A stretch of DNA of 64,000 bases. Source: Escherichia coli. GTDB taxonomy: Bacteria > Pseudomonadota > Gammaproteobacteria > Enterobacterales > Enterobacteriaceae. The position numbers and the translations under genes are program-made. The notes below the pieces were generated by a model, which did no database searches, had not been told where the DNA came from, and was given only the letters and a program-made list of their open reading frames with translations. This document shows positions 4,085 through 50,818 of this stretch, one piece after another; positions within the stretch are counted from its first letter, which is position 1, and every line of letters starts with the position of its first letter. The stretch lies in assembly GCF_003334405.1 (NCBI RefSeq), contig NZ_QOWM01000001.1; one strand, given 5' to 3'.

Positions 4085-5304
4085 AAATACTGGTCTACGG
4101 CATTAACTACTCGCCGGAGTTAACCGGCATCGGCAAATACACCGGCGAGATGGTGGAATGGCTGGCGGCACAAGGTCATGAGGTGCGGGTCATTACCGCA
4201 CCGCCTTACTACCCGCAGTGGCAGGTGGGCGAGAACTATTCCGCCTGGCGGTACAAACGGGAAGAGGGGGCCGCCACGGTGTGGCGCTGCCCGCTGTACG
4301 TGCCAAAACAGCCGAGCACCCTGAAACGCCTGTTGCATCTCGGCAGTTTTGCCGTCAGCAGTTTTTTCCCGTTGATGGCGCAACGTCGCTGGAAGCCGGA
4401 TCGCATTATCGGCGTAGTGCCAACGCTGTTTTGCACGCCGGGAATGCGCCTGCTGGCGAAACTTTCTGGTGCGCGCACGGTGCTGCATATTCAGGATTAC
4501 GAAGTGGACGCCATGCTGGGGCTGGGCCTTGCCGGAAAAGGCAAAGGCGGCAAAGTGGCACAGCTGGCGACGGCGTTCGAACGTAGCGGACTGCATAACG
4601 TCGATAACGTCTCCACGATTTCGCGTTCGATGATGAATAAAGCCATCGAAAAAGGCGTGGCAGCGGAAAACGTCATCTTCTTCCCCAATTGGTCGGAAAT
4701 CGCCCGTTTTCAATATGTTGCAGACGCCGATGTTGATGCCCTTCGTAACCAGCTTGGCCTGCCGGATAACAAAAAAATCATTCTTTACTCCGGCAATATT
4801 GGTGAAAAGCAGGGGCTGGAAAACGTTATTGAAGCTGCCGAACGCCTGCGTGATGAACCACTGATTTTTGCCATTGTCGGGCAGGGCGGCGGCAAAGCGC
4901 GGCTGGAAAAAATGGCGCAGCAGCGTGGACTGCGCAACATGCAATTTTTCCCGCTGCAATCGTATGACGCTTTACCCGCACTGCTGAAGATGGGCGATTG
5001 CCATCTGGTGGTGCAAAAACGCGGCGCGGCAGATGCCGTATTGCCGTCGAAACTGACCAATATTCTGGCAGTAGGCGGTAACGCAGTGATTACCGCAGAA
5101 GCCCACACAGAACTGGGGCAGCTTTGCGAAATCTTTCCGGGCATTGCGGTTTGCGTTGAACCGGAATCGGTCGAGGCGCTGGTGGCGGGGATTCGTCAGG
5201 CGCTCCTGCTGCCCAAACACAACACGGTGGCACGTGAATATGCCGAACGCACGCTCGATAAAGAGAACGTGTTACGTCAATTTATAAATGATATTCGGGG
5301 ATAA
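4081..5304 (+). CDS. wcaI: Colanic acid biosynthesis glycosyltransferase WcaI (GT4)
   Basis: 407 aa; start overlaps gmm stop (ATGA); synteny. Confidence 0.9.
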
Positions 5305-5306
5305 TT

Positions 5307-6743
5307 ATGGCGCAGTCGAAACTCTATCCAGTTGTGATGGCAGGTGGCTCCGGTAGCCGCTTATGGCCGCTTTCCCGCGTACTTTACCCCAAGCAGTTTT
5401 TATGCCTGAAAGGCGATCTCACCATGCTGCAAACCACCATCTGCCGCCTGAACGGCGTGGAGTGCGAAAGCCCGGTGGTGATTTGCAATGAGCAGCACCG
5501 CTTTATTGTCGCGGAACAGCTGCGTCAACTGAACAAACTCACCGAGAACATTATTCTCGAACCTGCAGGGCGTAACACTGCACCTGCCATTGCGCTGGCG
5601 GCGCTGGCGGCAAAACGTCATAGCCCGGAGATCGACCCGTTAATGCTGGTATTGGCGGCGGATCATGTGATTGCCGATGAAGACGCGTTCCGTGCCGCCG
5701 TGCGTAATGCCATGCCGTATGCCGAAGCGGGCAAGCTGGTGACCTTCGGCATTGTGCCGGATCTACCTGAAACCGGATATGGCTATATTCGTCGCGGTGA
5801 AGTATCTGCGGGTGAGCAGGATACGGTGGCCTTTGAAATGGCGCAGTTTGTCGAAAAACCGAATCTGGAAACCGCCCAGGCCTATGTGGCAAGCGGCGAA
5901 TATTACTGGAACAGCGGCATGTTCCTGTTCCGCGCCGGACGCTATCTCGAAGAACTGAAAAAATATCGCCCGGATATTCTCGACGCCTGTGAACAAGCGA
6001 TGAGCGCCGTCGATCCGGATCTCGATTTTATTCGCGTGGATGAAGAAGCGTTTCTGGCCTGCCCGGAAGAGTCGGTGGATTACGCGGTCATGGAACGTAC
6101 GGCAGATGCCGTTGTGGTGCCGATGGATGCGGGCTGGAGCGATGTCGGTTCCTGGTCTTCATTATGGGAGATCAGCGCCCACACCGCCGAGGGCAACGTT
6201 TGCCACGGCGATGTGATTAATCACAAAACTGAAAACAGCTATGTGTATGCCGAATCTGGCCTGGTCACCACCGTCGGGGTGAAAGATCTGGTGGTGGTGC
6301 AGACCAAAGATGCGGTGCTGATTGCAGACCGTAACGCGGTACAGGATGTGAAAAAAGTGGTCGAGCAGATCAAAGCCGAAGGTCGCCATGAGCATCGGGT
6401 GCATCGCGAAGTGTATCGCCCGTGGGGCAAATATGACTCTATTGACGCGGGCGACCGCTATCAGGTGAAACGCATCACCGTGAAACCGGGCGAGGGCTTG
6501 TCGGTACAGATGCACCATCACCGCGCGGAACACTGGGTGGTTGTCGCAGGAACGGCAAAAGTCACTATTGACGGTGATATCAAACTGCTTGGTGAAAACG
6601 AGTCCATTTATATTCCGCTGGGGGCGACGCACTGCCTGGAAAACCCGGGGAAAATTCCGCTCGATTTAATTGAAGTGCGCTCCGGGTCTTACCTCGAAGA
6701 GGATGATGTGGTGCGCTTCGCGGATCGCTACGGACGGGTATAG
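5307..6743 (+). CDS. cpsB: Mannose-1-phosphate guanylyltransferase (colanic acid copy)
   Basis: 478 aa; [11 protein letters not shown] nucleotidyl-transferase motif and C-terminal cupin domain; paralogue of the ORF at 21239-22678. Confidence 0.95.
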
Positions 6744-6844
6744 CAGTTGAATAATCAACCGGAATAAATCTCCGGCAAATAACGACAAAAACAAAATTGG
6801 CCGTTTCGGTCAGGGCCAACTATTGCCTGAAAAAGGGTAACGAC

Positions 6845-8215
6845 ATGAAAAAATTAACCTGCTTTAAAGCCTACGATATTCGCGGGAAATTAGGCGAAGA
6901 ACTGAATGAAGATATTGCCTGGCGTATTGGTCGCGCCTATGGCGAATTTCTTAAACCGAAAACCATTGTTTTAGGCGGTGATGTCCGCCTCACCAGCGAA
7001 ACCTTAAAACTGGCGCTGGCAAAAGGTTTACAGGATGCGGGCGTCGATGTGCTGGATATTGGCATGTCCGGCACCGAAGAGATCTATTTCGCCACGTTCC
7101 ATCTCAGCGTGGATGGCGGCATTGAAGTTACCGCCAGCCATAACCCGATGGATTACAACGGCATGAAGCTGGTGCGCGAAGGGGCTCGCCCGATCAGCGG
7201 CGATACCGGACTGCGCGACGTCCAGCGTCTGGCAGAAGCCAATGACTTCCCTCCTGTCGATGAAACCAAACGCGGTCGCTATCAGCAAATCAATCTGCGT
7301 GACGCTTACGTTGATCACCTGTTCGGTTATATCAACGTCAAAAACCTCACGCCGCTCAAGCTGGTGATCAACTCCGGGAACGGCGCGGCGGGGCCGGTGG
7401 TGGACGCCATTGAAGCTCGCTTTAAAGCCCTCGGCGCACCCGTAGAATTGATCAAAGTGCACAACACGCCCGACGGGAATTTCCCCAACGGTATTCCTAA
7501 CCCGCTACTGCCGGAATGTCGCGACGACACCCGCAATGCGGTCATCAAACACGGCGCAGATATGGGCATTGCCTTTGATGGCGATTTTGACCGCTGTTTC
7601 CTGTTTGACGAAAAAGGGCAGTTTATTGAGGGCTATTACATTGTCGGCCTGCTGGCAGAAGCGTTCCTCGAAAAAAATCCCGGCGCGAAGATCATCCACG
7701 ATCCACGTCTCTCCTGGAACACCGTTGATGTGGTGACGGCCGCGGGCGGCACGCCGGTGATGTCGAAAACCGGACACGCCTTTATTAAAGAACGTATGCG
7801 CAAGGAAGACGCCATCTACGGTGGCGAAATGAGCGCTCACCATTACTTCCGCGATTTCGCTTACTGTGACAGCGGCATGATCCCGTGGCTGCTGGTGGCC
7901 GAACTGGTGTGCCTGAAAGGAAAAACGCTGGGCGAACTGGTGCGCGACCGGATGGCAGCGTTTCCGGCAAGCGGTGAGATCAACAGCAAACTGGCGCAAC
8001 CCGTTGAGGCGATTAACCGCGTCGAACAGCATTTTAGCCGTGAGGCGCTGGCGGTGGATCGTACCGATGGCATCAGTATGACCTTTGCCGACTGGCGTTT
8101 TAACCTGCGCTCCTCCAACACCGAACCGGTGGTGCGGTTGAATGTGGAATCGCGCGGTGATGTGCCGCTGATGGAAGCGCGAACGCGAACTCTGCTGACG
8201 TTGCTGAACGAGTAA
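6845..8215 (+). CDS. cpsG: Phosphomannomutase (colanic acid copy)
   Basis: Start taken at [14 protein letters not shown] (internal to the listed ORF 6797-8215); TASHNP active-site motif; paralogue at 22705-24099. Confidence 0.95.
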
Positions 8216-8220
8216 TGTCA

Positions 8221-8340
8221 TTACTTTCCCCCTCACCCTGACGCTCTACTGCCTGCGAAGAGAAGTGAGCACGGAACTTTCTTCTCCCCCTCGCCCCTTT
8301 GGGGAGAGGGCCGGGGTGAGGGGCGAGGCGACAATAGAAC
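8221..8340. repeat. GC-rich imperfect palindromic intergenic repeat (REP/BIME-like)
   Basis: CCCCTCACCC ... GGGGTGAGGGGCGAGG and CCCCTCGCCCC...GGGGAGAGGG inverted motifs between cpsG and wcaJ. Confidence 0.5.
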
Positions 8341-8350
8341 AGGAACAACG

Positions 8351-9745
8351 ATGACAAATCTAAAAAAACGCGAGCGAGCGAAAACCAATGCATCGTTAAT
8401 CTCTATGGTGCAACGCTTTTCAGATATCACCATCATGTTTGCCGGGCTATGGCTGGTTTGCGAAGTCAGCGGACTGTCATTCCTCTACATGCACCTGTTG
8501 GTGGCGCTGATTACGCTGGTGGTGTTCCAGATGCTGGGCGGCATCACCGATTTTTATCGCTCATGGCGAGGTGTTCGGGCAGCGACAGAATTTGCCCTGT
8601 TGCTACAAAACTGGACGTTAAGCGTGATTTTCAGCGCCGGACTGGTGGCGTTTAACAATGATTTCGACACGCAACTGAAAATCTGGCTGGCGTGGTATGG
8701 GCTGACCAGCATCGGACTGGTGGTTTGCCGTTCATGTATTCGCATTGGGGCGGGCTGGCTGCGTAATCATGGCTATAACAAGCGCATGGTCGCGGTGGCG
8801 GGGGATTTAGCCGCTGGACAAATGCTGATGGAGAGCTTCCGTAATCAGCCGTGGTTAGGGTTTGAAGTGGTGGGCGTTTACCACGACCCGAAACCGGGTG
8901 GCGTTTCTAACGACTGGGCGGGCAATCTGCAACAGCTGGTCGAGGATGCGAAAGCGGGCAAGATTCATAACGTCTATATCGCGATGCAAATGTGCGACGG
9001 CGCGCGAGTGAAAAAACTGGTCCATCAATTGGCGGACACCACCTGTTCGGTGCTGCTGATCCCCGATGTCTTTACTTTCAACATTCTCCATTCACGTCTC
9101 GAAGAGATGAACGGCGTTCCGGTGGTGCCGCTTTACGATACGCCGCTTTCCGGGGTTAACCGCCTGATAAAACGTGCGGAAGACATTGTGCTGGCGACGC
9201 TTATCCTGCTGCTGATCTCCCCGGTGCTGTGCTGCATTGCGCTGGCGGTGAAACTCAGTTCACCTGGGCCGGTTATTTTCCGCCAGACTCGCTACGGTAT
9301 GGATGGCAAGCCGATCAAAGTGTGGAAGTTCCGTTCCATGAAAGTGATGGAGAACGACAAAGTGGTGACCCAGGCGACGCAGAACGATCCGCGCGTCACT
9401 AAAGTGGGGAACTTTCTGCGCCGCACCTCGCTGGATGAATTGCCGCAGTTTATCAATGTGCTGACTGGCGGGATGTCGATTGTCGGGCCACGTCCGCACG
9501 CGGTGGCGCATAACGAACAGTATCGCCAGCTCATTGAAGGCTACATGCTGCGCCATAAAGTGAAACCGGGCATTACCGGCTGGGCGCAGATTAATGGCTG
9601 GCGCGGCGAAACCGACACGCTGGAGAAAATGGAAAAACGCGTCGAGTTCGACCTTGAGTACATCCGCGAGTGGAGCGTCTGGTTCGATATCAAAATCGTT
9701 TTCCTGACGGTATTCAAAGGCTTCGTTAACAAAGCGGCATATTGA
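8351..9745 (+). CDS. wcaJ: UDP-glucose:undecaprenyl-phosphate glucose-1-phosphate transferase
   Basis: 464 aa; N-terminal TM segments and C-terminal bacterial sugar transferase domain (PRPHAVAHNEQYRQLIEGY). Confidence 0.9.
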   Translation: MTNLKKRERAKTNASLISMVQRFSDITIMFAGLWLVCEVSGLSFLYMHLLVALITLVVFQMLGGITDFYRSWRGVRAATEFALLLQNWTLSVIFSAGLVAFNNDFDTQLKIWLAWYGLTSIGLVVCRSCIRIGAGWLRNHGYNKRMVAVAGDLAAGQMLMESFRNQPWLGFEVVGVYHDPKPGGVSNDWAGNLQQLVEDAKAGKIHNVYIAMQMCDGARVKKLVHQLADTTCSVLLIPDVFTFNILHSRLEEMNGVPVVPLYDTPLSGVNRLIKRAEDIVLATLILLLISPVLCCIALAVKLSSPGPVIFRQTRYGMDGKPIKVWKFRSMKVMENDKVVTQATQNDPRVTKVGNFLRRTSLDELPQFINVLTGGMSIVGPRPHAVAHNEQYRQLIEGYMLRHKVKPGITGWAQINGWRGETDTLEKMEKRVEFDLEYIREWSVWFDIKIVFLTVFKGFVNKAAY

Positions 9746-9746
9746 T

Positions 9747-11225
9747 ATGAGCTTACGTGAAAAAACCATCAGCGGCGCGAAGTGGTCGGCGATTGCCACG
9801 GTGAGCATCATCGGCCTCGGGCTGGTGCAGATGACCGTGCTGGCGCGGATTATCGACAACCACCAGTTCGGCCTGCTTACCGTGTCGCTGGTGATTATCG
9901 CGCTGGCAGATACGCTTTCTGACTTCGGTATCGCTAACTCCATTATTCAGCGAAAAGAAATCAGTCACCTTGAACTCACCACGTTGTACTGGCTGAACGT
10001 CGGGCTGGGGATCGTGGTGTGCGTGGCGGTGTTTTTGTTGAGTGATGCCATTGGCGACATGCTGAATAACCCGGACCTGGCACCGTTGATTAAAACATTG
10101 TCGCTGGCGTTTGTGGTGATCCCCCACGGGCAACAGTTCCGCGCGTTGATGCAAAAAGAGCTGGAGTTCAACAAAATCGGCATGATCGAAACCAGCGCGG
10201 TGCTGGCGGGCTTTACTTTTACGGTGGTTAGCGCCCATTTCTGGCCGCTGGCGATGACCGCGATCCTCGGTTATCTGGTCAATAGTGCGGTAAGAACGCT
10301 GCTGTTTGGCTACTTTGGTCGAAAAATTTATCGCCCCGGTCTGCATTTCTCGCTGGCATCGGTGGCACCAAACTTACGCTTTGGTGCCTGGCTGACGGCG
10401 GACAGCATCATCAACTATCTCAACACCAACCTTTCAACGCTGGTGCTGGCGCGTATTCTCGGCGCGGGCGTGGCAGGGGGATACAACCTGGCGTACAACG
10501 TGGCCGTTGTGCCACCGATGAAGCTGAACCCAATCATCACCCGCGTGTTGTTTCCGGCATTCGCCAAAATTCAGGATGACACCGAAAAGCTGCGCGTCAA
10601 CTTCTACAAGCTGCTGTCGGTAGTGGGGATTATCAACTTTCCGGCGCTGCTCGGGCTGATGGTGGTGTCAAATAACTTTGTACCGCTGGTATTTGGCGAA
10701 AAGTGGAACAGCATTATTCCGGTGCTGCAATTGCTGTGTGTGGTGGGGCTACTGCGCTCCGTGGGTAACCCGATTGGTTCGCTGCTGATGGCGAAAGCGC
10801 GGGTCGATATCAGCTTTAAATTCAACGTATTCAAAACCTTTCTGTTTATTCCGGCGATTGTTATTGGTGGGCAGATGGCGGGCGCAATCGGCGTCACGCT
10901 CGGCTTCCTGCTGGTGCAGATTATCAACACCATTCTGAGTTACTTCGTGATGATTAAACCGGTGCTCGGTTCCAGTTATCGCCAGTACATCCTGAGTTTA
11001 TGGCTGCCGTTTTATCTCTCGCTGCCGACGCTGGCGGTCAGTTATGCGCTGGGCATTGTACTGAAAGGGCAACTGGCGCTGGGGATGCTGCTGGCGGTGC
11101 AAATAGCCGCGGGCGTGCTGGCGTTTGTGGTGATGATTGTGCTGTCGCGCCATCCGCTGATGGTGGAAGTGAAGCGTCAGTTTTGTCGCAGCGAAAAAAT
11201 GAAAATGCTTTTACGGGCGGGGTGA
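9747..11225 (+). CDS. wzxC: Colanic acid repeat-unit flippase (Wzx family)
   Basis: 492 aa polytopic membrane protein directly after wcaJ. Confidence 0.9.
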   Translation: MSLREKTISGAKWSAIATVSIIGLGLVQMTVLARIIDNHQFGLLTVSLVIIALADTLSDFGIANSIIQRKEISHLELTTLYWLNVGLGIVVCVAVFLLSDAIGDMLNNPDLAPLIKTLSLAFVVIPHGQQFRALMQKELEFNKIGMIETSAVLAGFTFTVVSAHFWPLAMTAILGYLVNSAVRTLLFGYFGRKIYRPGLHFSLASVAPNLRFGAWLTADSIINYLNTNLSTLVLARILGAGVAGGYNLAYNVAVVPPMKLNPIITRVLFPAFAKIQDDTEKLRVNFYKLLSVVGIINFPALLGLMVVSNNFVPLVFGEKWNSIIPVLQLLCVVGLLRSVGNPIGSLLMAKARVDISFKFNVFKTFLFIPAIVIGGQMAGAIGVTLGFLLVQIINTILSYFVMIKPVLGSSYRQYILSLWLPFYLSLPTLAVSYALGIVLKGQLALGMLLAVQIAAGVLAFVVMIVLSRHPLMVEVKRQFCRSEKMKMLLRAG

Positions 11226-11296
11226 ATGGTTGTTTTAGGCTACGGCAATAAAAACAATAACATAACCTCACCTGGCATCAAATTTATGAGGAAAAA

Positions 11297-12577
11297 ATGA
11301 AATTACTTATTCTGGGCAACCACACTTGCGGCAATCGTGGCGACAGCGCCATCTTGCGCGGCTTACTTGATGCCATCAACATCCTCAATCCACATGCCGA
11401 AGTGGACGTGATGAGCCGCTATCCGGTCAGTTCTTCCTGGCTGCTCAACCGCCCGGTAATGGGCGATCCGCTGTTCCTGCAAATGAAACAACACAACAGC
11501 GCGGCGGGCGTTGTCGGGCGCGTTAAAAAAGTTCTCCGTCGCCGCTATCAACACCAGGTATTGCTCTCACGCGTCACCGACACTGGCAAGCTGCGTAATA
11601 TCGCCATCGCCCAGGGATTCACTGACTTCGTGCGCCTGCTGTCAGGTTACGACGCCATTATTCAGGTCGGCGGATCGTTTTTTGTCGATCTCTACGGCGT
11701 GCCGCAGTTTGAACACGCGCTTTGCACTTTCATGGCGAAAAAGCCGCTGTTTATGATTGGTCACAGCGTCGGCCCCTTCCAGGATGAGCAATTTAACCAA
11801 CTGGCGAACTACGTTTTTGGTCACTGCGACGCGCTGATCCTGCGCGAATCGGTCAGCCTTGATTTGATGAAACGCAGCAATATCACTACCGCAAAAGTTG
11901 AACATGGCGTTGATACTGCCTGGCTGGTCGATCACCACACAGAAGATTTCACCGCCAGCTATGCCGTTCAACACTGGCTGGACGTTGCCGCACAACAGAA
12001 AACGGTGGCAATTACCCTGCGCGAACTGGCACCGTTCGACAAACGCCTCGGCACCACTCAACAAGCGTATGAAAAAGCCTTTGCCGGGGTGGTCAATCGC
12101 ATTCTCGACGAAGGGTATCAGGTGATTGCGCTCTCCACCTGTACGGGCATCGACAGCTATAACAAAGACGACCGCATGGTGGCGCTCAACCTGCGCCAGC
12201 ACATCAGCGATCCTGCCCGTTATCACGTAGTGATGGATGAACTCAACGATCTGGAAATGGGCAAAATTCTGGGTGCCTGTGAACTCACCGTCGGTACGCG
12301 CCTGCACTCTGCCATTATCTCAATGAACTTTGCCACTCCGGCGATTGCCATCAACTATGAACATAAATCCGCCGGGATTATGCAGCAGCTGGGGCTGCAA
12401 GAGATGGCGATTGATATCCGTCATTTATTAGACGGCACCCTGCAAGCGATGGTTGCGGATACCTTAGGCCAACTTCCGGCGCTGAACGCACGACTTAGCG
12501 AAGCCGTCAGTCGCGAACGTCAGACGGGAATGCGGATGGTGCAGTCTGTGCTTGAGCGCATCGGGGAGGCGAAATGA
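11297..12577 (+). CDS. wcaK: Colanic acid pyruvyl transferase
   Basis: 426 aa; N-terminal GNHTCGNRGDSAIL pyruvyl-transferase-type motif; synteny. Confidence 0.9.
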   Translation: MKLLILGNHTCGNRGDSAILRGLLDAINILNPHAEVDVMSRYPVSSSWLLNRPVMGDPLFLQMKQHNSAAGVVGRVKKVLRRRYQHQVLLSRVTDTGKLRNIAIAQGFTDFVRLLSGYDAIIQVGGSFFVDLYGVPQFEHALCTFMAKKPLFMIGHSVGPFQDEQFNQLANYVFGHCDALILRESVSLDLMKRSNITTAKVEHGVDTAWLVDHHTEDFTASYAVQHWLDVAAQQKTVAITLRELAPFDKRLGTTQQAYEKAFAGVVNRILDEGYQVIALSTCTGIDSYNKDDRMVALNLRQHISDPARYHVVMDELNDLEMGKILGACELTVGTRLHSAIISMNFATPAIAINYEHKSAGIMQQLGLQEMAIDIRHLLDGTLQAMVADTLGQLPALNARLSEAVSRERQTGMRMVQSVLERIGEAK

Positions 12578-43427: not shown

Positions 43428-44486
43428 ATGTTTTCAATGATATTAAGCGGGCTAATTTGTGGTGCTCTGCTGGGATTTGTCATGCAGCGTGGGCGTTTTT
43501 GCCTGACAGGTGGTTTTCGCGATATGTATCTCGCGAAAAATAATCGCATGTTTTACGCCTTGCTGATTGCAATTTCGGTACAAAGTGTGGGGGTTTTTGC
43601 GTTAATTCAGGCGGGCCTACTGACTTACGAAGCCGGGGCGTTCCCGTGGCTTGGTACTGTTATAGGTGGGTATATCTTTGGGCTGGGAATTGTTCTGGCG
43701 GGTGGATGTGCCACCGGGACCTGGTATCGCGCGGGTGAGGGATTGATCGGCAGTTGGATCGCGCTTTTCACTTATATGGTGATGAGTGCGGTGATGCGTT
43801 CTCCACATGCCAGTGGTTTAAATCAAACCTTGCAGCACTACAGTACTGAACATAACTCTATTGCTGAGACTTTTAATTTGTCTGTGTGGCCGTTGGTTGC
43901 CGTTTTGCTGGTGATAACGCTCTGGGTGGTGATGAAAGAGTTGAAGAAGCCAAAACTCAAAGTCGCGACCTTACCGCCGCGCCGAACCGGGATCGCTCAT
44001 ATTCTGTTTGAAAAACGCTGGCATCCCTTTGTCACTGCTGTACTCATCGGTTTGATTGCGCTTTTAGCCTGGCCCCTGAGTGAAGCAACCGGACGCATGT
44101 TTGGGTTAGGAATCACTTCCCCAACGGCCAATATTCTGCAATTTCTGGTCGCGGGTGACGTGAAATACATTAACTGGGGCGTTTTCCTGGTGTTAGGGAT
44201 CTTCGTGGGGTCATTTATTGCAGCCAAAGCGAGCCGTGAGTTCCGCGTTCGCGCAGCTGATGCACAAACAACATTACGTAGCGGGTTAGGTGGTGTACTG
44301 ATGGGCTTCGGTGCCAGTATTGCAGGTGGTTGCTCTATCGGTAATGGACTGGTTATGACTGCAATGATGACCTGGCAGGGCTGGATTGGCCTTGTATTTA
44401 TGATTCTCGGAGTCTGGACTGCGTCCTGGCTTGTGTATGTTCGACCGCAGCGTAAGGCGCGACTGGCAACTGCTGCGGCAAATTAA
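43428..44486 (+). CDS. yeeE: YeeE/YedE-family thiosulfate transporter
   Basis: 352 aa membrane protein with two conserved Cys-containing repeats (GRFCLTGG, GGCSIGNG). Confidence 0.85.
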   Translation: MFSMILSGLICGALLGFVMQRGRFCLTGGFRDMYLAKNNRMFYALLIAISVQSVGVFALIQAGLLTYEAGAFPWLGTVIGGYIFGLGIVLAGGCATGTWYRAGEGLIGSWIALFTYMVMSAVMRSPHASGLNQTLQHYSTEHNSIAETFNLSVWPLVAVLLVITLWVVMKELKKPKLKVATLPPRRTGIAHILFEKRWHPFVTAVLIGLIALLAWPLSEATGRMFGLGITSPTANILQFLVAGDVKYINWGVFLVLGIFVGSFIAAKASREFRVRAADAQTTLRSGLGGVLMGFGASIAGGCSIGNGLVMTAMMTWQGWIGLVFMILGVWTASWLVYVRPQRKARLATAAAN

Positions 44487-44499
44487 GTAAGGTGTAAAG

Positions 44500-44727
44500 A
44501 TGGCGATTAAAAAGCTGGATGTGGTGACGCAGGTCTGTCCGTTTCCACTCATAGAAGCAAAAGCAGCACTGGCAGAAATGGCCAGCGGCGATGAGTTGGT
44601 AATTGAGTTTGATTGCACCCAGGCAACTGAAGCAATCCCACAGTGGGCGGCAGAAGAAGGACATGCCATCACCGATTATCAGCAGATTGGCGATGCAGCG
44701 TGGAGCATCACCGTTCAAAAAGCCTGA
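44500..44727 (+). CDS. yeeD: TusA-like sulfurtransferase YeeD
   Basis: 75 aa; CPFP motif (TusA-type active Cys); immediately downstream of yeeE. Confidence 0.85.
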   Translation: MAIKKLDVVTQVCPFPLIEAKAALAEMASGDELVIEFDCTQATEAIPQWAAEEGHAITDYQQIGDAAWSITVQKA

Positions 44728-44769
44728 CTCAACATTGTCCTCCGCCGTACCAGCGGCGGAGGCTTCAAA

Positions 44770-46197
44770 TTAGACGATCTCTTCCGCGTACTGCCAAAGC
44801 GCTTTTAACAGCGCCACTTTCTCTTTGTCATCGGCATATTGTTGTGCCAGCATCTGCAATTCATCTGCATAACCCTGTAAAAACTCTGGCGTGAAGACCT
44901 GGCGGCGGTGCTCCAGCCAGCGTTGCTGCTCGGCATAATCCAGCGTCCCCGGGAAGTTGCGCGCCCGATAATTGAACAACAGCTTTTCAATCCGTTTATC
45001 GACAAAAGTGATATCCAGTGCCGGTAAATTACGCGGCTCGGTTTCCAGCACAATTTTCATTGCTGCACGATCGGCGTCACTGAAAAAGCCGTTATAAAGC
45101 TGTGCATCCACGTTATCTGAAGGCGTAAACGGTTCGGCTTCCGCGAATATCGCCACCACTTTTTCGCGCACTTGCGGATTTTCACGCAGAATTTTCAGGT
45201 TATCGAGGCAATGCTGACGATTAATTCCCAGTCGGTCGGCATCTTCCGGGCGTAGCGTATTCGCCTGGGCCAGCACCGGACATTTATTGATATGCACCAG
45301 CTTAACCGGAACGGCGGCGTTATCGCCAAGATCGGTTTTTGCGGTATATAAACGCTCGCGCAATGTGTCGCTATCCAGTTCCAGTAATGGCGAAATGTCT
45401 CCTGCCAAATCCACCATAATTACAGCATTGCGATTTTCAGGATGCCACGCCAGCGGTGCCACCCAGCTGGTATTGCCGCGCCATGCCCCAAACATTCCGG
45501 AAACGTGAACCAGGGGTTTCATCTGCGGAACATCAATCAACGCCATCAGTTTGTGTTTATTACGATGGGTAAAGAGATAATCAAACAGGCGTGGCTGACG
45601 CGTTTTTACCAGTTTCGCCATCGCAATAGTGGCGTACACATCAGCCATCGCATCGTGGGCGTTGCTATGTTCAATACCATTCGCTTTGGTTAAATGCTCA
45701 AGGCGAAAGCTCGGTAGACCGTCATCATTTTCAGGCCAGTTTATTCCTTCCGGGCGCAGGGCATAACAGGCACGCATAACATCCAACAAATCCCAGCGCG
45801 AGTTATCATGCTGCCAGCTCCAGGCGTAAGGATCGTAGAAATTACGATAAAAAACGTTGCGTGTGACTTCGTCGTCGAAACGCACATTGTTGTAGCCCAG
45901 AATACAGGTCTTCGGTACGGTAAAAAGCGAGTGAATACGGGCGGCAAACGCGGCTTCGTTTTCTCCTTTCGCCCGTGCTTCCTGCGGGGTAATACCGGTA
46001 ATTAATACTGCTCCAGGCTGGGGTAAATAGTCATCCGCGGGCTTGCAGTAAAAGACTTCGGGTTCGCCGATGACATTGAATTCGCTATCGGTGCGAATGG
46101 CTGCGAACTGTGCAGGGCGATCTAACGCGGGGTGCGTGCCAAAGGTTTCGTAATCGTGAAACAAAAAGGTAGATTGTTGCTTACCGTCATTCATCAT
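44770..46197 (-). CDS. sbcB: Exodeoxyribonuclease I
   Basis: Start taken at MMNDGKQQSTFLFHDYETFGT (DEDD exonuclease motif); listed ORF extends 16 codons upstream. Confidence 0.95.
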   Translation of the reverse strand: MMNDGKQQSTFLFHDYETFGTHPALDRPAQFAAIRTDSEFNVIGEPEVFYCKPADDYLPQPGAVLITGITPQEARAKGENEAAFAARIHSLFTVPKTCILGYNNVRFDDEVTRNVFYRNFYDPYAWSWQHDNSRWDLLDVMRACYALRPEGINWPENDDGLPSFRLEHLTKANGIEHSNAHDAMADVYATIAMAKLVKTRQPRLFDYLFTHRNKHKLMALIDVPQMKPLVHVSGMFGAWRGNTSWVAPLAWHPENRNAVIMVDLAGDISPLLELDSDTLRERLYTAKTDLGDNAAVPVKLVHINKCPVLAQANTLRPEDADRLGINRQHCLDNLKILRENPQVREKVVAIFAEAEPFTPSDNVDAQLYNGFFSDADRAAMKIVLETEPRNLPALDITFVDKRIEKLLFNYRARNFPGTLDYAEQQRWLEHRRQVFTPEFLQGYADELQMLAQQYADDKEKVALLKALWQYAEEIV

Positions 46198-46399
46198 TAG
46201 GTTAAATCCGTTATTTCTGCTGTCTGCCAGAGTATCAAATATCACCGTGCTAATCAGCTTTAGCGCAACAATTTGACAGCGAGTGGCAACAGATCATGTC
46301 AGATAAAAATGAGAGAGTAGTCACATTTTCTTGCACTTTATTCCAGCCAGTTCATAAGTATTTCCGTAAAAAGAACAGCTATTTGAAACTCCTGAGGGT

Positions 46400-47572
46400 T
46401 TGCTGTTGAAACGCCGTCTTATTATTGCTGCTTCTTTGTTCGTTTTTAACTTATCGTCTGGTTTTGCGGCGGAAAACATTCCTTTTTCACCTCAGCCTCC
46501 ACAGATTCATGCCGGGTCCTGGGTACTGATGGATTACACCACCGGTCAGATCCTCACCGCGGGTAATGAGCATCAACAGCGCAATCCCGCCAGCCTGACA
46601 AAGCTGATGACGGGTTATGTCGTGGATCGCGCTATCGATAGTCATCGCATTACGCCAGACGATATTGTCACCGTGGGGCGCGATGCGTGGGCGAAAGATA
46701 ATCCGGTGTTTGTCGGTTCTTCACTGATGTTTTTGAAAGAGGGCGATCGCGTATCGGTACGTGATTTAAGCCGTGGTTTAATTGTGGATTCCGGAAATGA
46801 CGCTTGTGTTGCTCTGGCTGACTATATTGCCGGTGGGCAACGGCAGTTTGTTGAAATGATGAACAACTATGCCGAGAAGCTGCATCTCAAGGATACGCAT
46901 TTTGAAACAGTGCATGGTCTGGATGCACCTGGCCAGCATAGCTCGGCTTATGATTTAGCTGTGCTTTCTCGCGCTATCATCCACGGCGAGCCCGAGTTTT
47001 ATCATATGTACAGTGAGAAAAGTCTCACCTGGAACGGTATCACCCAGCAAAACCGTAACGGGTTGTTGTGGGATAAAACCATGAATGTTGACGGCCTGAA
47101 AACGGGTCATACTTCTGGTGCCGGGTTTAATCTCATTGCTTCGGCTGTAGATGGGCAGCGTCGTCTCATTGCAGTGGTAATGGGGGCTGACAGTGCAAAA
47201 GGTCGTGAGGAAGAGGCAAGAAAATTACTGCGTTGGGGGCAACAAAACTTTACTACGGTGCAAATTTTGCACCGTGGGAAAAAGGTCGGAACGGAACGCA
47301 TCTGGTATGGCGATAAAGAAAATATCGACCTGGGAACGGAACAAGAGTTCTGGATGGTGCTACCGAAAGCCGAAATTCCACATATCAAAGCCAAATATAC
47401 CCTTGATGGTAAAGAGCTCACCGCGCCAATTAGCGCCCATCAGCGGGTAGGGGAAATTGAACTTTACGACCGTGATAAACAGGTGGCGCACTGGCCGCTG
47501 GTTACCCTGGAATCTGTCGGGGAAGGCAGCATGTTTTCTCGCCTGAGTGATTATTTCCACCATAAGGCCTGA
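46400..47572 (+). CDS. dacD: D-alanyl-D-alanine carboxypeptidase (PBP6b)
   Basis: 390 aa; signal peptide, SLTK active-site motif (ASLTKLMT); apparent TTG start. Confidence 0.9.
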   Translation: MLLKRRLIIAASLFVFNLSSGFAAENIPFSPQPPQIHAGSWVLMDYTTGQILTAGNEHQQRNPASLTKLMTGYVVDRAIDSHRITPDDIVTVGRDAWAKDNPVFVGSSLMFLKEGDRVSVRDLSRGLIVDSGNDACVALADYIAGGQRQFVEMMNNYAEKLHLKDTHFETVHGLDAPGQHSSAYDLAVLSRAIIHGEPEFYHMYSEKSLTWNGITQQNRNGLLWDKTMNVDGLKTGHTSGAGFNLIASAVDGQRRLIAVVMGADSAKGREEEARKLLRWGQQNFTTVQILHRGKKVGTERIWYGDKENIDLGTEQEFWMVLPKAEIPHIKAKYTLDGKELTAPISAHQRVGEIELYDRDKQVAHWPLVTLESVGEGSMFSRLSDYFHHKA

Positions 47573-47656
47573 CCTTTCTTTTGCAGCAGACTGGCAGGAG
47601 TGCGAGTCTGCTCGCATAATCAACACTCATTCCTTGTGGTTTTAATTTTGCAACTA

Positions 47657-47676
47657 TACTGTATATAAAAACAGCA
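47657..47676 (+). promoter_or_regulatory. LexA (SOS) box upstream of sbmC
   Basis: TACTGTATATAAAAACAGCA matches CTGT-N8-ACAG consensus, 15 nt upstream of sbmC ATG. Confidence 0.85.
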
Positions 47677-47690
47677 TCAATGGAGGCGTC

Positions 47691-48164
47691 ATGAACTACG
47701 AGATTAAGCAGGAAGAGAAACGTACCGTTGCAGGTTTCCATCTCGTTGGCCCGTGGGAACAGACGGTAAAGAAAGGTTTTGAGCAGTTGATGATGTGGGT
47801 AGATAGCAAAAATATTGTGCCGAAGGAGTGGGTTGCTGTCTATTACGACAATCCGGATGAAACACCCGCCGAAAAATTACGCTGCGACACCGTCGTGACG
47901 GTACCGAATAACTTTACGCTCCCCGAAAACAGTGAGGGCGTCATTCTGACAGAAATTTCAGGTGGTCAATATGCGGTGGCGGTGGCTCGTGTAGTCGGTG
48001 ATGATTTTGCTAAACCCTGGTATCAGTTCTTTAATAGCCTCTTGCAGGACAGTGCTTATGAAATGTTACCAAAGCCCTGCTTCGAGGTTTACTTGAACAA
48101 TGGCGCGGAAGATGGGTACTGGGATATCGAAATGTATGTTGCGGTGCAGCCAAAACATCACTAA
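47691..48164 (+). CDS. sbmC: DNA gyrase inhibitor SbmC (GyrI)
   Basis: 157 aa; synteny and LexA box. Confidence 0.9.
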
Positions 48165-48361
48165 TTCATCTCAGGGCGGTGTGTTAACGCGAAGACCACT
48201 CTTTTTTTGAAAGCGAAAAGAGTAAGATGCGCCTTTCAAATTTTTCGCTCCTGCCGGGAAATTACACTGTTCCCGGTATGTCCGTCGGATAACTCAGAGG
48301 CGCGCCTTCTGGCCGACAGATGTGTTATGAGCGCTTTTCATCTTCATTACGGAGTTTCTGA

Positions 48362-49420
48362 GTGCGTGCCGATAAGTCATTAAGCCCGTTTGAAATCCGG
48401 GTATACCGCCATTACCGCATTGTGCATGGTACTCGGGTCGCGCTGGCATTCCTGCTCACTTTTCTCATTATCCGCCTGTTTACTATCCCGGAAAGCACCT
48501 GGCCGCTGGTCACCATGGTGGTGATTATGGGGCCAATCTCGTTCTGGGGGAACGTTGTCCCTCGTGCCTTCGAACGTATTGGCGGTACGGTGTTGGGGTC
48601 GATTTTAGGTCTTATCGCTCTGCAACTGGAGTTAATTTCGTTACCGCTGATGTTAGTCTGGTGCGCGGCGGCGATGTTTCTTTGCGGTTGGCTGGCGCTG
48701 GGCAAGAAACCGTATCAAGGATTATTGATTGGGGTGACGCTGGCAATTGTTGTGGGTTCCCCGACAGGTGAAATTGATACGGCGTTATGGCGAAGCGGCG
48801 ATGTGATCCTCGGCTCTTTACTGGCAATGTTGTTTACCGGTATCTGGCCACAACGGGCGTTCATCCACTGGCGCATTCAACTGGCGAAAAGTCTGACCGA
48901 GTATAATCGGGTCTATCAATCTGCATTCTCACCGAACTTACTCGAACGCCCACGTCTGGAAAGCCATCTACAAAAACTGCTGACCGATGCCGTGAAAATG
49001 CGTGGGCTGATTGCGCCCGCCAGCAAAGAAACCCGTATTCCCAAATCGATATATGAAGGTATCCAGACCATTAACCGCAATCTGGTTTGTATGCTGGAGT
49101 TGCAAATCAATGCGTACTGGGCCACGCGCCCCAGCCATTTCGTGTTATTGAACGCGCAAAAACTTCGTGATACCCAGCACATGATGCAGCAAATACTGCT
49201 GAGCCTTGTTCATGCGCTGTACGAAGGTAATCCGCAGCCGGTTTTTGCCAATACGGAAAAATTGAACGATGCTGTGGAAGAGCTGCGTCAGTTGCTCGAT
49301 AACCACCATGACCTGAAGGTTGTGGAAACACCAATCTATGGTTATGTGTGGCTGAACATGGAAACGGCACATCAGCTTGAGTTGCTATCGAATCTGATTT
49401 GCCGGGCCTTGCGCAAATAA
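48362..49420 (+). CDS. yeeA: Inner membrane protein YeeA (FUSC-like)
   Basis: 352 aa with N-terminal TM helices; probable GTG start; synteny. Confidence 0.8.
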   Translation: MRADKSLSPFEIRVYRHYRIVHGTRVALAFLLTFLIIRLFTIPESTWPLVTMVVIMGPISFWGNVVPRAFERIGGTVLGSILGLIALQLELISLPLMLVWCAAAMFLCGWLALGKKPYQGLLIGVTLAIVVGSPTGEIDTALWRSGDVILGSLLAMLFTGIWPQRAFIHWRIQLAKSLTEYNRVYQSAFSPNLLERPRLESHLQKLLTDAVKMRGLIAPASKETRIPKSIYEGIQTINRNLVCMLELQINAYWATRPSHFVLLNAQKLRDTQHMMQQILLSLVHALYEGNPQPVFANTEKLNDAVEELRQLLDNHHDLKVVETPIYGYVWLNMETAHQLELLSNLICRALRK

Positions 49421-49591
49421 TTCCTGAACTTCAGAATCATCTTGCTGCTGCTTCGATTCAGCAAGGATAAAGGGTATGATAGTGAAAAGGGATAAAAGCA
49501 TTGTCATCTGCGGCAGCTATGAGTAATGTTGGCCCTAACGAATAGCGGTTGCTTAAACGAATCCGACTCTCACATTATCAGGGGTATAAAA

Positions 49592-49921
49592 ATGGAAACT
49601 ACCAAGCCTTCATTCCAGGACGTACTGGAATTTGTTCGTCTGTTCCGTCGTAAGAACAAACTGCAACGTGAAATTCAGGACGTTGAGAAAAAGATCCGTG
49701 ACAACCAGAAGCGCGTCCTGTTGCTGGACAACCTGAGCGATTACATCAAGCCAGGGATGAGCGTTGAAGCAATCCAGGGCATCATCGCCAGCATGAAAGG
49801 TGACTATGAAGATCGCGTTGACGATTACATCATCAAAAATGCCGAGCTCTCCAAAGAACGCCGCGATATCTCCAAAAAGCTGAAAGCTATGGGCGAAATG
49901 AAAAACGGCGAAGCGAAGTAA
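49592..49921 (+). CDS. yeeX: UPF0265 protein YeeX
   Basis: 109 aa from [27 protein letters not shown] with SD upstream; listed ORF has a spurious upstream extension. Confidence 0.9.
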
Positions 49922-50021
49922 TTCCCGTTTTATTCAATGAGGGTTGCCCGGCAACCTTCATTGCTCATTGATTCTTATCTGTGTATCACCGTCATCATTC
50001 TCATCTGAGAACCAATCGAAA

Positions 50022-50260
50022 TTAACAACAGCCTTCTTCTGTATGCAGCAAGGCAAAAAGTTCTGTAACTCCATTGTTATTAACTGCACTGGTTACTAAC
50101 ACGTTGTGCGCTCCAGCTTCCCGTAACCAACTTTTCACCAAAGATATTTGTTCCATGCTGGCTAAATCTGCTTTGGTTACTACTCCAATGACCGGGTGAT
50201 TCATGGCCCGGTAGGGCGTTTTTACCTCTAATTCCTGCTTCAGCGCTGAGATTCCTGCTT
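50022..50260 (-). pseudogene. C-terminal fragment of a EutP/PduV-family small GTPase (yoeF-like remnant)
   Basis: PVIGVVTKADLAS...LFALL resembles the PduV/EutP C-terminus; no N-terminal P-loop region present; truncated at the IS66 junction. Confidence 0.4.
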
Positions 50261-50261
50261 G

Positions 50262-50434
50262 TTGCCGGAAAAGCAGGCACCTGCCGTCTGAACGGTATCG
50301 ATCCGGAAGCGTATCTGCGCCATATTCTGAGCATACTGCCGGAATGGCCCTCCAACCGTGTTGACGAACTCCTGCCATGGAACGTAGTTCTCACCAATAA
50401 ATAAGCGTCAATACGGTGCTCCGTTGACGCTTAC
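50262..50434 (+). mobile_element. IS66-family element remnant: last ~45 codons of transposase plus terminal repeat
   Basis: Translation ...GTCRLNGIDPEAYLRHILSILPEWPSNRVDELLPWNVVLTNK*; about 85-90 percent nucleotide match to the inverted copy at 57659-57805; ends ...CGCTTAC. Confidence 0.65.
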
Positions 50435-50818
50435 TTTAATCCGTTTTCTGAGCTTAGATTTTTCTGTTCCTACCCAGACCGTGGATTTGGAATTCATTTT
50501 TTGTCAGGTCAATGCTAATCGTTAAAACGGCCATAACGCACCTCCACTGGAAGGTTTATCAGTAATATCCTACCGTTGCTTCATGGTCGGGGCGTCCATT
50601 CCATTATTATCGGTTTTCCTTTCTGTTTATAAATGAAAACGCCAGCTGTATTCAGGCTGGCGTCAGGGGAAATGAAGCCTGTTGAGTGAGATTCACCGGT
50701 TCTGGTGCAGAAGCTGCAGATGGCGCAGGGTAAGGACATCTTCTCTTGCCTGCTTAATACAGGACAACAGTGCTGTTTCTGTGGTTAATGGCACTATACC
50801 CTGCATCACTGCATTGTC

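Follow-up and report, generated by a model that had tools for sequence, protein, structure and literature searches.

A putative inverted BoxC repeat pair in the cpsG–wcaJ spacer of Escherichia coli

What is the GC-rich palindrome that lies between cpsG and wcaJ in this stretch of Escherichia coli DNA, and does it do anything for the genes on either side of it? The window, by which we mean the whole stretch of 64,000 nt that was analysed, had been described before in a sequence-only reading, which boxed 8221-8340 as a long imperfect palindrome of an enterobacterial intergenic repeat family. The palindromic element proper covers approximately 8228-8328 and is enclosed by that box. The cpsG stop codon (TAA) can be read directly at 8213-8215 and the wcaJ ATG starts at 8351, both on the + strand, within a co-directional run of cpsB, cpsG, wcaJ and wzxC, all of them on the + strand. 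The gene names cpsG and wcaJ are those that RefSeq gives for E. coli strain S43, which has a 100% identical spacer; within the spacer RefSeq annotates nothing. The 135-nt spacer is transcribed within the wca (colanic acid) operon and is bounded as follows:

8216-8350, + strand: the cpsG–wcaJ spacer ("long allele"), 135 nt, from the cpsG stop to the wcaJ ATG
8341-8344 and 8351-8353, + strand: the wcaJ Shine-Dalgarno sequence AGGA and the wcaJ start codon, both unpaired in the predicted fold

On the wcaJ side, most of the 73 species loci considered below share the conserved sequence ACAGGAACAACG-ATG. On the cpsG side, an ATG at 8214 opens an 8-codon ORF (MSLLSPSP*, window 8214-8240) that overlaps the cpsG stop as TAATG and extends into the 5' arm of the outer stem; its K-12 counterpart has 10 codons, and its ATG is not conserved beyond Escherichia. 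For cpsG itself the mechanical ORF list gives a TTG start at 6797 (472 aa; window 6797-8215), while the RefSeq orthologue starts at an ATG whose equivalent in the window is 6845 (456 aa). The same list also holds two ORFs that run antisense through the element:

8100-8393, - strand: antisense ORF
8233-8436, - strand: antisense ORF

These had been suspected of being artefacts of composition, and that suspicion fits their absence from the RefSeq annotation and their low-complexity translations across the repeat, rich in Pro, Gly, Arg and Ser; they should not be called in annotation.

The inverted motifs quoted in the sequence-only reading are all present in the letters themselves, CCCCTCACCC at 8229-8238, GGGTGAGGGG at 8314-8323, CCCCTCGCCCC at 8287-8297 and GGGGAGAGGG at 8301-8310. 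A repeat search returned three sets of inverted arms: 8229-8247 / 8305-8323 (19 nt, 84% complementary), 8287-8297 / 8313-8323 (91% complementary) and 8289-8298 / 8319-8328 (100% complementary). Each of the patterns GGGAGAGGGCCGGGGTGAGGGG (at most three mismatches), CCCCTCNCCC-N0-30-GGGNGAGGGG and GGGNGAGGGNNNGGGNGAGGG occurs once in the 64-kb window, against 0.00 occurrences each in 100 dinucleotide-preserving shuffles. The RNA fold of 8216-8350 reaches -58.5 kcal/mol, compared with -44.4 ± 4.0 for shuffled sequences (z = -3.51; 0 of 200 shuffles did as well), and the DNA fold of the spacer gives z = -2.34. The nested inverted G/C blocks are not a product of chance. Their main pairings, in which R…F denotes a reverse followed by a forward repeat copy, are these:

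8229-8240, + strand: 5' arm of the outer stem, 12 bp with 8312-8323, in the RNA and DNA MFE structures and in the consensus of R…F pairs
8312-8323, + strand: 3' arm of the outer stem, which is block 3 of the forward copy, in the RNA and DNA MFE structures and in the R…F consensus
8288-8310, + strand: right inner hairpin, block 1 with block 2 (8288-8297 / 8301-8310), with one C·A mismatch
8319-8328, + strand: AGGGGCGAGG, an additional, overlapping G-block that is perfectly complementary to 8289-8298 and offers another register of pairing

The predicted RNA structure has three helices, with a weaker hairpin at 8260-8286 lying, like the block 1–block 2 hairpin, inside the 12-bp outer stem, and it ends approximately 23-27 nt upstream of the wcaJ ATG. 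Considering that no pairing extends past 8333 in this fold, the AGGA ribosome-binding site at 8341-8344 is predicted to be free. The C·A mismatch of the block 1–block 2 hairpin is the "mm" of the published "type B mm" class. The GGGGTGAGGGGCGAGG of the extra G-block is also found in Enterobacter hormaechei (locus L031). The stretch GGGGAGAGGGCCGGGGTGAGGGG (window 8301-8323), with four G-tracts and 3-nt loops, would qualify as a G-quadruplex motif too, on the mRNA-sense strand; for the DNA oligonucleotide, Holder et al. argued against G4 (PMC4666352).

The identity of the element comes from its right half, which contains two nested features:

8269-8324, + strand: BoxC unit, 56 nt, a T/C-rich leader plus a three-block core (BLAST query positions 54-109)
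8288-8323, + strand: forward BoxC/PIT/TMECO core, type B, an exact fit to the consensus

The repeat that has been named, in order, BoxC, PIT element and TMECO has the consensus CCCTCNCCC-N3-6-GGGNGAGGG-N3-GGGNGAGGG, with three 9-nt blocks (Holder et al. 2015, NAR 43:10126, PMC4666352), and a regular-expression match of 8288-8322 to it gave 0 mismatches. Block 1 is CCCTCGCCC (8288-8296), followed by the loop CTTTG (8297-8301), block 2 GGGAGAGGG (8302-8310), the loop CCG (8311-8313), block 3 GGGTGAGGG (8314-8322) and a terminal G (8323). A second loop of TTA defines type A and one of CCG type B (PMC4666352), so that the CCG at 8311-8313 makes the forward copy type B. Over the 36 nt of 8288-8323 the core is 100% identical to TMECO no. 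3 of MG1655, listed as type B with one mismatch (PMC4666352 Table 1); this is the K-12 copy that Holder et al. probed in vivo, and the exact core sequence has already been studied biophysically (PMC4666352).

A BLAST search with the spacer in 5426 complete E. coli genomes showed 8269-8324 to be multi-copy, with matches in 4611 of them at 28,083 places (median 6 per genome, maximum 15), almost all chromosomal; the published numbers of TMECO copies are 23 in MG1655 and an average of about 15 per strain, from 823 in 56 strains (PMC4666352). Alignments to other loci run from 8269 or 8270 to 8323 or 8324; the segment 8269-8324 is 56 nt long, and the length of BoxC is quoted as 56 bp (PMC2267715). 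When the copy was aligned with six K-12 copies, the blocks were invariant and the flanks unrelated. The core is intergenic, after the stop codon of cpsG and before the start codon of wcaJ, and three diagnostic patterns revealed no second BoxC copy within the 64-kb window. Consensus, copy number, intergenic position, loop type and length all agree, and we have little doubt that the feature between cpsG and wcaJ can be assigned to the BoxC/PIT/TMECO repeats. The earlier placing of the element in an enterobacterial intergenic repeat family, together with the comparison with boxC proposed there, has thus led to membership of the boxC family itself; a single-copy element with no similarity to known repeats had been named as the finding that would overturn this placing, and the core is both multi-copy and identical to a published BoxC/TMECO sequence. 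The BoxC repeat family was described in the 1990s. Since the family is known and the exact core sequence published, we count the element as already known, and it is an ordinary one.

Two aspects were missed by the sequence-only reading: the repeated part is the right half alone, next to a unique left half that appears to be its decayed partner copy, and the element as a whole is an allele carried by a minority of E. coli genomes. The left part of the pair consists of:

8228-8265, - strand: putative decayed, reverse-oriented type-A BoxC partner, from alignment to intact reverse copies
8266-8287, + strand: central spacer of the pair, TGAGCACGGAACTTTCTTCTCC, which resembles the spacer of K-12 TMECO no. 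3 and that of one Enterobacter wca pair

We aligned the left half with intact inverted pairs, namely K-12 lldD–trmL and those in the wca spacers of Kluyvera, Enterobacter, Lelliottia, Buttiauxella and Pseudenterobacter. It matches a reverse type-A copy column by column, although this reading as a decayed copy comes from one alignment in which about 10 positions deviate from the family consensus. Block 3' (CCCCCTCACCC, 8228-8238) is intact; the loop at 8239-8241 is TGA, compared with TAA in the family, block 2' (8242-8249) is CGCTCTAC, compared with CCCTCTCC, and block 1' (8257-8265) is GAAGAGAAG, compared with GGGAGAGGG, a position at which most other long alleles still have GGAGAGAAG. Blocks 2' and 1' fit neither the strict nor the relaxed BoxC pattern, and the reverse copy is recognisable by alignment only. 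The central spacer has its counterpart in the GACTGCACCGAGCCATCTTTTCC of K-12 TMECO no. 3. Published inverted pairs consist of two full TMECO motifs, a type A and a type B, on opposite strands within approximately 100 bp, and a type-A copy inverted beside a type-B copy is the arrangement of all five K-12 pairs (PMC4666352). Because the left half aligns with a reverse type-A copy, and because the order of type A and type B matches the K-12 pairs, the element is, as far as its sequence can tell, an inverted R…F BoxC pair whose upstream member has no inner hairpin and only its outermost block intact.

The left half is also single-copy, as 8216-8274 was found once in each of 509 long-allele genomes and nowhere else among the 5426 E. 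coli genomes, and in metagenomes the exact 21-nt left-half pattern appeared on two contigs only, both at the cpsG–wcaJ junction. Recent copying of the left half from another locus was considered and rejected, with no other copy in the 5426 genomes.

How common is this arrangement in E. coli? Of the 5426 complete genomes, 4649 align to 80% or more of a 735-nt query spanning the locus, and the 135-nt long spacer is present in 509 of these, that is, in approximately 11% or about one in nine. The remainder, roughly 4100 genomes, carry a spacer of 54 nt, the short allele; K-12, O157:H7 and ATCC 25922 are among them, with 54-55 nt between identical flanks. The short allele reads TGTCGGATCTT-CCCTTACCCC-ACTGC-GGGTAAGGGG-CTAATAACAGG and forms a simple 10-bp hairpin with the arms CCCTTACCC…GGGTAAGGG and a fold of about -17 kcal/mol. 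It occupies the same position as the long allele and has the flanks TAATGTC… and …AACAGGAACAACGATG in common with it, but it is 81 nt shorter and has two blocks and no third G-block, and hence no triplex motif. At the same time, its arms CCCTTACCC/GGGTAAGGG are one compensated base pair apart from the BoxC outer blocks CCCTCACCC/GGGTGAGGG, and its CGGA(T/A)CTT leader resembles the BoxC leader, so that the short hairpin may be a reduced relative of the BoxC repeat.

The alleles are not separated by their 440-nt coding flanks, upstream or downstream, all of which lie within the high but normal E. coli wca diversity (95.7-99.3%), and this suggests that the two alleles look like an old, recombining polymorphism and not like a recent import from another genus; such an import of the long allele was rejected on the same grounds, the flanks being unclustered and within E. 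coli wca diversity. Flanking coding sequence is collinear in all genomes examined, and the spacer alone differs between the alleles. Long alleles are themselves variable: E69 has an A→C change in the outer 5' arm together with an 8-nt deletion in block 3, and in O55:H7 DEC5A the third block is mutated to GGGGTGCGGGG, so that this allele would fail the published strict TMECO pattern. These changes are disruptive and uncompensated, suggesting that the outer stem is under no visible constraint within E. coli.

On a larger scale, the wca region (window 5300-11300) is about 97% identical to the best of the 5426 complete E. coli genomes and the sbcB–dacD–cobT region (window 44000-62000) 99.8% identical to the best genome, which indicates that the window is a mosaic with a divergent colanic-acid haplotype. 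Matches to window 44000-62000 are split in 2-4 pieces, and the best-matching genomes annotate ISL3-family and IS2/IS3 transposases inside or adjoining it, which suggests insertion-sequence polymorphism there.

A literature search did not find a described cpsG–wcaJ stem-loop, and the supplements of Holder et al. (PMC4666352) make no mention of wcaJ, cpsG, colanic or manB. Nor did we find an earlier description of the long/short allele pair or of the wide BoxC occupancy of the orthologous spacer; both are minor points, and both fit the strain-to-strain variability already published for the BoxC family.

Taken as a whole, the element is best explained, with a probability of roughly 0.85, as a BoxC R…F pair that is one of two old alleles. 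It would be a tolerated repeat with no gene-specific function, and its most plausible effect would be that of a passive hairpin in the mRNA. Transcribed with the operon, it would form the three-helix mRNA structure in which the outer stem 8229-8240/8312-8323 encloses the block 1–block 2 hairpin, and this structure would sit upstream of the wcaJ ATG and leave the ribosome-binding site free. By analogy with REP hairpins in other operons it could be a passive barrier to 3'→5' exonucleases, and it might act as an insulator between the cpsG and wcaJ cistrons. REP hairpins are stabilisers of mRNA 3' ends in operons such as malE–malF; a role of this mRNA-hairpin kind at cpsG–wcaJ, argued from that analogy, is a tentative proposal and less likely than not, and the effect on RNA stability suggested in the sequence-only reading would be equally tentative.

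Could the hairpin instead be something that the operon itself requires? With WcaJ as a probe we retrieved 80 species-level loci, E. albertii, E. fergusonii, E. marmotae and E. ruysiae not being among them, and delimited the cpsG–wcaJ spacer in 73. A recognisable BoxC is present in 25 of the 73 spacers: 13 contain separate R…F pairs, 3 compact four-block palindromes, 4 the forward copy only and 5 the reverse copy only, with Enterobacter, Lelliottia, Kluyvera, Buttiauxella, Pseudenterobacter, Superficieibacter and Pluralibacter among the genera represented. Most of the other spacers hold a simple GC-rich hairpin of BoxC-like blocks, for example CCCCTCTCCC-GAC-GGGGGAGGGG in Leclercia. When compared with dinucleotide shuffles, 60 of the 73 spacers fold with z < -2 (median z -3.07). 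In two Enterobacteriaceae the spacer has grown to 247 and 357 nt (L030 2254-2500 and L055 2144-2500, respectively) by tandem arrays of partial BoxC-like units that separate the outer R copy from the outer F copy.

The two kinds of hairpin behave differently in alignment. Among 15 sequences of the short-allele 10-bp stem (Escherichia, Salmonella and Citrobacter), 98% of cells are paired and three pairs are changed on both sides (C-G↔U-A, U-A↔C-G and A-U↔G-C), while the same structure slid by 1 to 3 columns scores far lower. The BoxC blocks of the R…F pairs, on the other hand, are invariant across genera with zero covariation; they are conserved as sequence and not merely as pairing, which makes copying or gene conversion a better explanation for them than selection for RNA structure.

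As a control we used the neighbouring cpsB–cpsG spacer, which has likewise gathered REP and ERIC-like repeats and, in one species, BoxC; being equally repeat-rich, it weakens the claim that the cpsG–wcaJ site is special, and spacers of the wca region may simply be tolerant of palindromic repeats. The cpsB–cpsG spacer (window 6744-6844; L001 1438-1629) also varies in length, and REP/PU (BIME) units occupy it in S43, E69 and E. whittamii, with none in the window. Upstream of the cpsG ATG, at about window 6797-6844, a small hairpin is followed by GGGCCAACTGTTGCCTGAAAAAGGGTAA (GGGCCAACTATTGCC… in the window), a motif conserved across many genera, which may serve cpsG/manB as a leader or in the initiation of translation.

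These comparisons bear on the idea of a selected mRNA element of the colanic-acid operon throughout Enterobacteriaceae, which would block exonucleases, be a site of processing or insulate translation so as to set WcaJ dosage, with BoxC as one interchangeable supplier of it. The significant structure of 60 out of 73 spacers, the compensatory changes in the Escherichia/Salmonella/Citrobacter hairpin and the fact that the structure ends clear of the conserved AGGA in the window, in K-12 and in most other spacers are what one would expect of such an element. Palindromic repeats, however, are self-complementary by nature, so that "structured" follows from "repeat-occupied", and the idea must also accommodate an adjacent cpsB–cpsG spacer that is just as rich in repeats, the uncompensated mutations of the E. 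coli long alleles and a few species whose spacers are weakly structured (L081, L029 and L008). We therefore regard selection of this kind as possible but doubtful. A more specific version, in which a family-wide selected cpsG–wcaJ stem-loop balances the sugar-nucleotide genes against the initiating transferase WcaJ, and BoxC persists as a hairpin supplier, seems to us unlikely; if true, it would be the first concrete function for BoxC, for which we know of no role after 30 years.

An effect at the level of DNA was also considered, in which the G-rich strand would adopt a triplex (or G-quadruplex) during replication or transcription and create a hotspot of rearrangement or recombination beside the O-antigen region. 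TMECO-type oligonucleotides do form an intrastrand purine-motif triplex as single-stranded DNA in vitro, as seen by CD and NMR, and TMECO loci vary more from one E. coli strain to another than control loci do (PMC4666352); the cpsG–wcaJ locus is itself polymorphic, and the four G-tracts of GGGGAGAGGGCCGGGGTGAGGGG are in place. But the oligonucleotides are duplex once the complementary strand is present, in vivo DMS footprinting detected no triplex at the identical K-12 copy (PMC4666352), and at cpsG–wcaJ the coding flanks are collinear, with only the spacer differing, leaving this explanation quite improbable.

The comparison of alleles could also be read in terms of a mobile, MITE-like unit, an R…F pair of about 100 bp that inserted into or converted an ancestral short hairpin in one E. 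coli lineage and then spread by recombination. Outer blocks that are terminal inverted repeats, a central spacer resembling that of a pair at an unrelated K-12 locus, and a short allele that looks ancestral for its clade, being common to E. whittamii, Salmonella (S. arizonae) and Citrobacter, would all suit such a unit. Yet comparison of the long and short alleles revealed no target-site duplication at the junctions, no donor for the left half exists among 5426 E. coli genomes, its 21-nt pattern occurs in metagenomes only at cpsG–wcaJ, and the same R…F arrangement in the spacer of many genera fits old vertical presence equally well. We know of no transposase for BoxC, and give this mobility a distinctly low probability.

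The weakest proposal takes up the partial termination of the sequence-only reading, as a partial Rho-independent terminator or attenuator inside the operon, which has in its favour a very stable GC-rich stem within the transcript and can be given almost no credence, since a stem with no U-tract is not an intrinsic terminator and here the stem is followed by CGAGGCGACAATAGAAC with no U-tract on either strand, the sequence after the structure (GGGGCGAGGCGACAATAGAAC) has no U-run, the terminator scan made no call on it, and earlier work by Maher and colleagues, as cited in PMC4666352, reported neither promoter nor terminator activity for PIT elements. The only call nearby, at 8196-8220, is a weak AT-rich stem across the cpsG stop and was discarded, three such hits being near chance against 0.9 ± 1.0 expected. 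A scan of the region found no promoter-like site.

With the BoxC pair as the preferred reading, the element carries little weight as a discovery and has modest uses only. It can fill a spacer that is blank in RefSeq. The natural allele pair, at one site in a well-understood operon, offers a clean system for studying effects of BoxC on mRNA and on local genome stability. As a comparative lead, the presence of BoxC or a related hairpin in the same spacer of dozens of enterobacterial species bears on how BoxC is maintained.

Among known elements, chance similarity accounts for the Rfam hits obtained at a permissive threshold, all to eukaryotic models with 12-15 bits against gathering thresholds of 40-59 and E-values of 2-7, and no Rfam family covers the element. 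ERIC/IRU elements resemble the present one in being enterobacterial intergenic imperfect palindromes (about 127 bp) that are transcribed within operons, but their block structure differs, and the ERIC core (…AAGTAAGTGACTGGGGTGAGCG…) has no match in the window at up to three mismatches; the element is not ERIC/IRU. REP/PU units and BIMEs are likewise palindromic, intergenic, often intra-operon and enterobacterial, and in other strains REPs are found next door, in the cpsB–cpsG spacer; they have no sequence similarity to the element, and the PU consensus GCCGGATGCGGCG…CGCCTTATCCGGCCTAC has no match at up to three mismatches anywhere in the window, so that it is not REP/PU either.

The TMECO family, in contrast, is like the element in being intergenic, multi-copy and strain-variable, and in having an inverted type-A partner, as at five K-12 sites; unlike in the published pairs, the partner copy appears decayed here and is single-copy. 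In the study of Holder et al., the positions of TMECO copies were not linked to gene regulation (PMC4666352). The cpsG–wcaJ spacer is not among the 23 K-12 TMECO sites, because K-12 has the short hairpin allele there. The closest K-12 parallel considered is the lldD–trmL pair (TMECO 17 + 18, NC_000913.3 3781028-3781156), in which a reverse type-A copy, CCCCTCACCC-TAA-CCCTCTCCC…, is followed by a forward type-B copy, …GGGAGAGGG-CCG-GGGTGAGGGG, with complementary outer blocks and in the same R…F order as here. At lldD–trmL both halves are intact, the central spacer is longer and the pair lies between two separate genes, whereas the wca pair lies inside a long biosynthetic operon.
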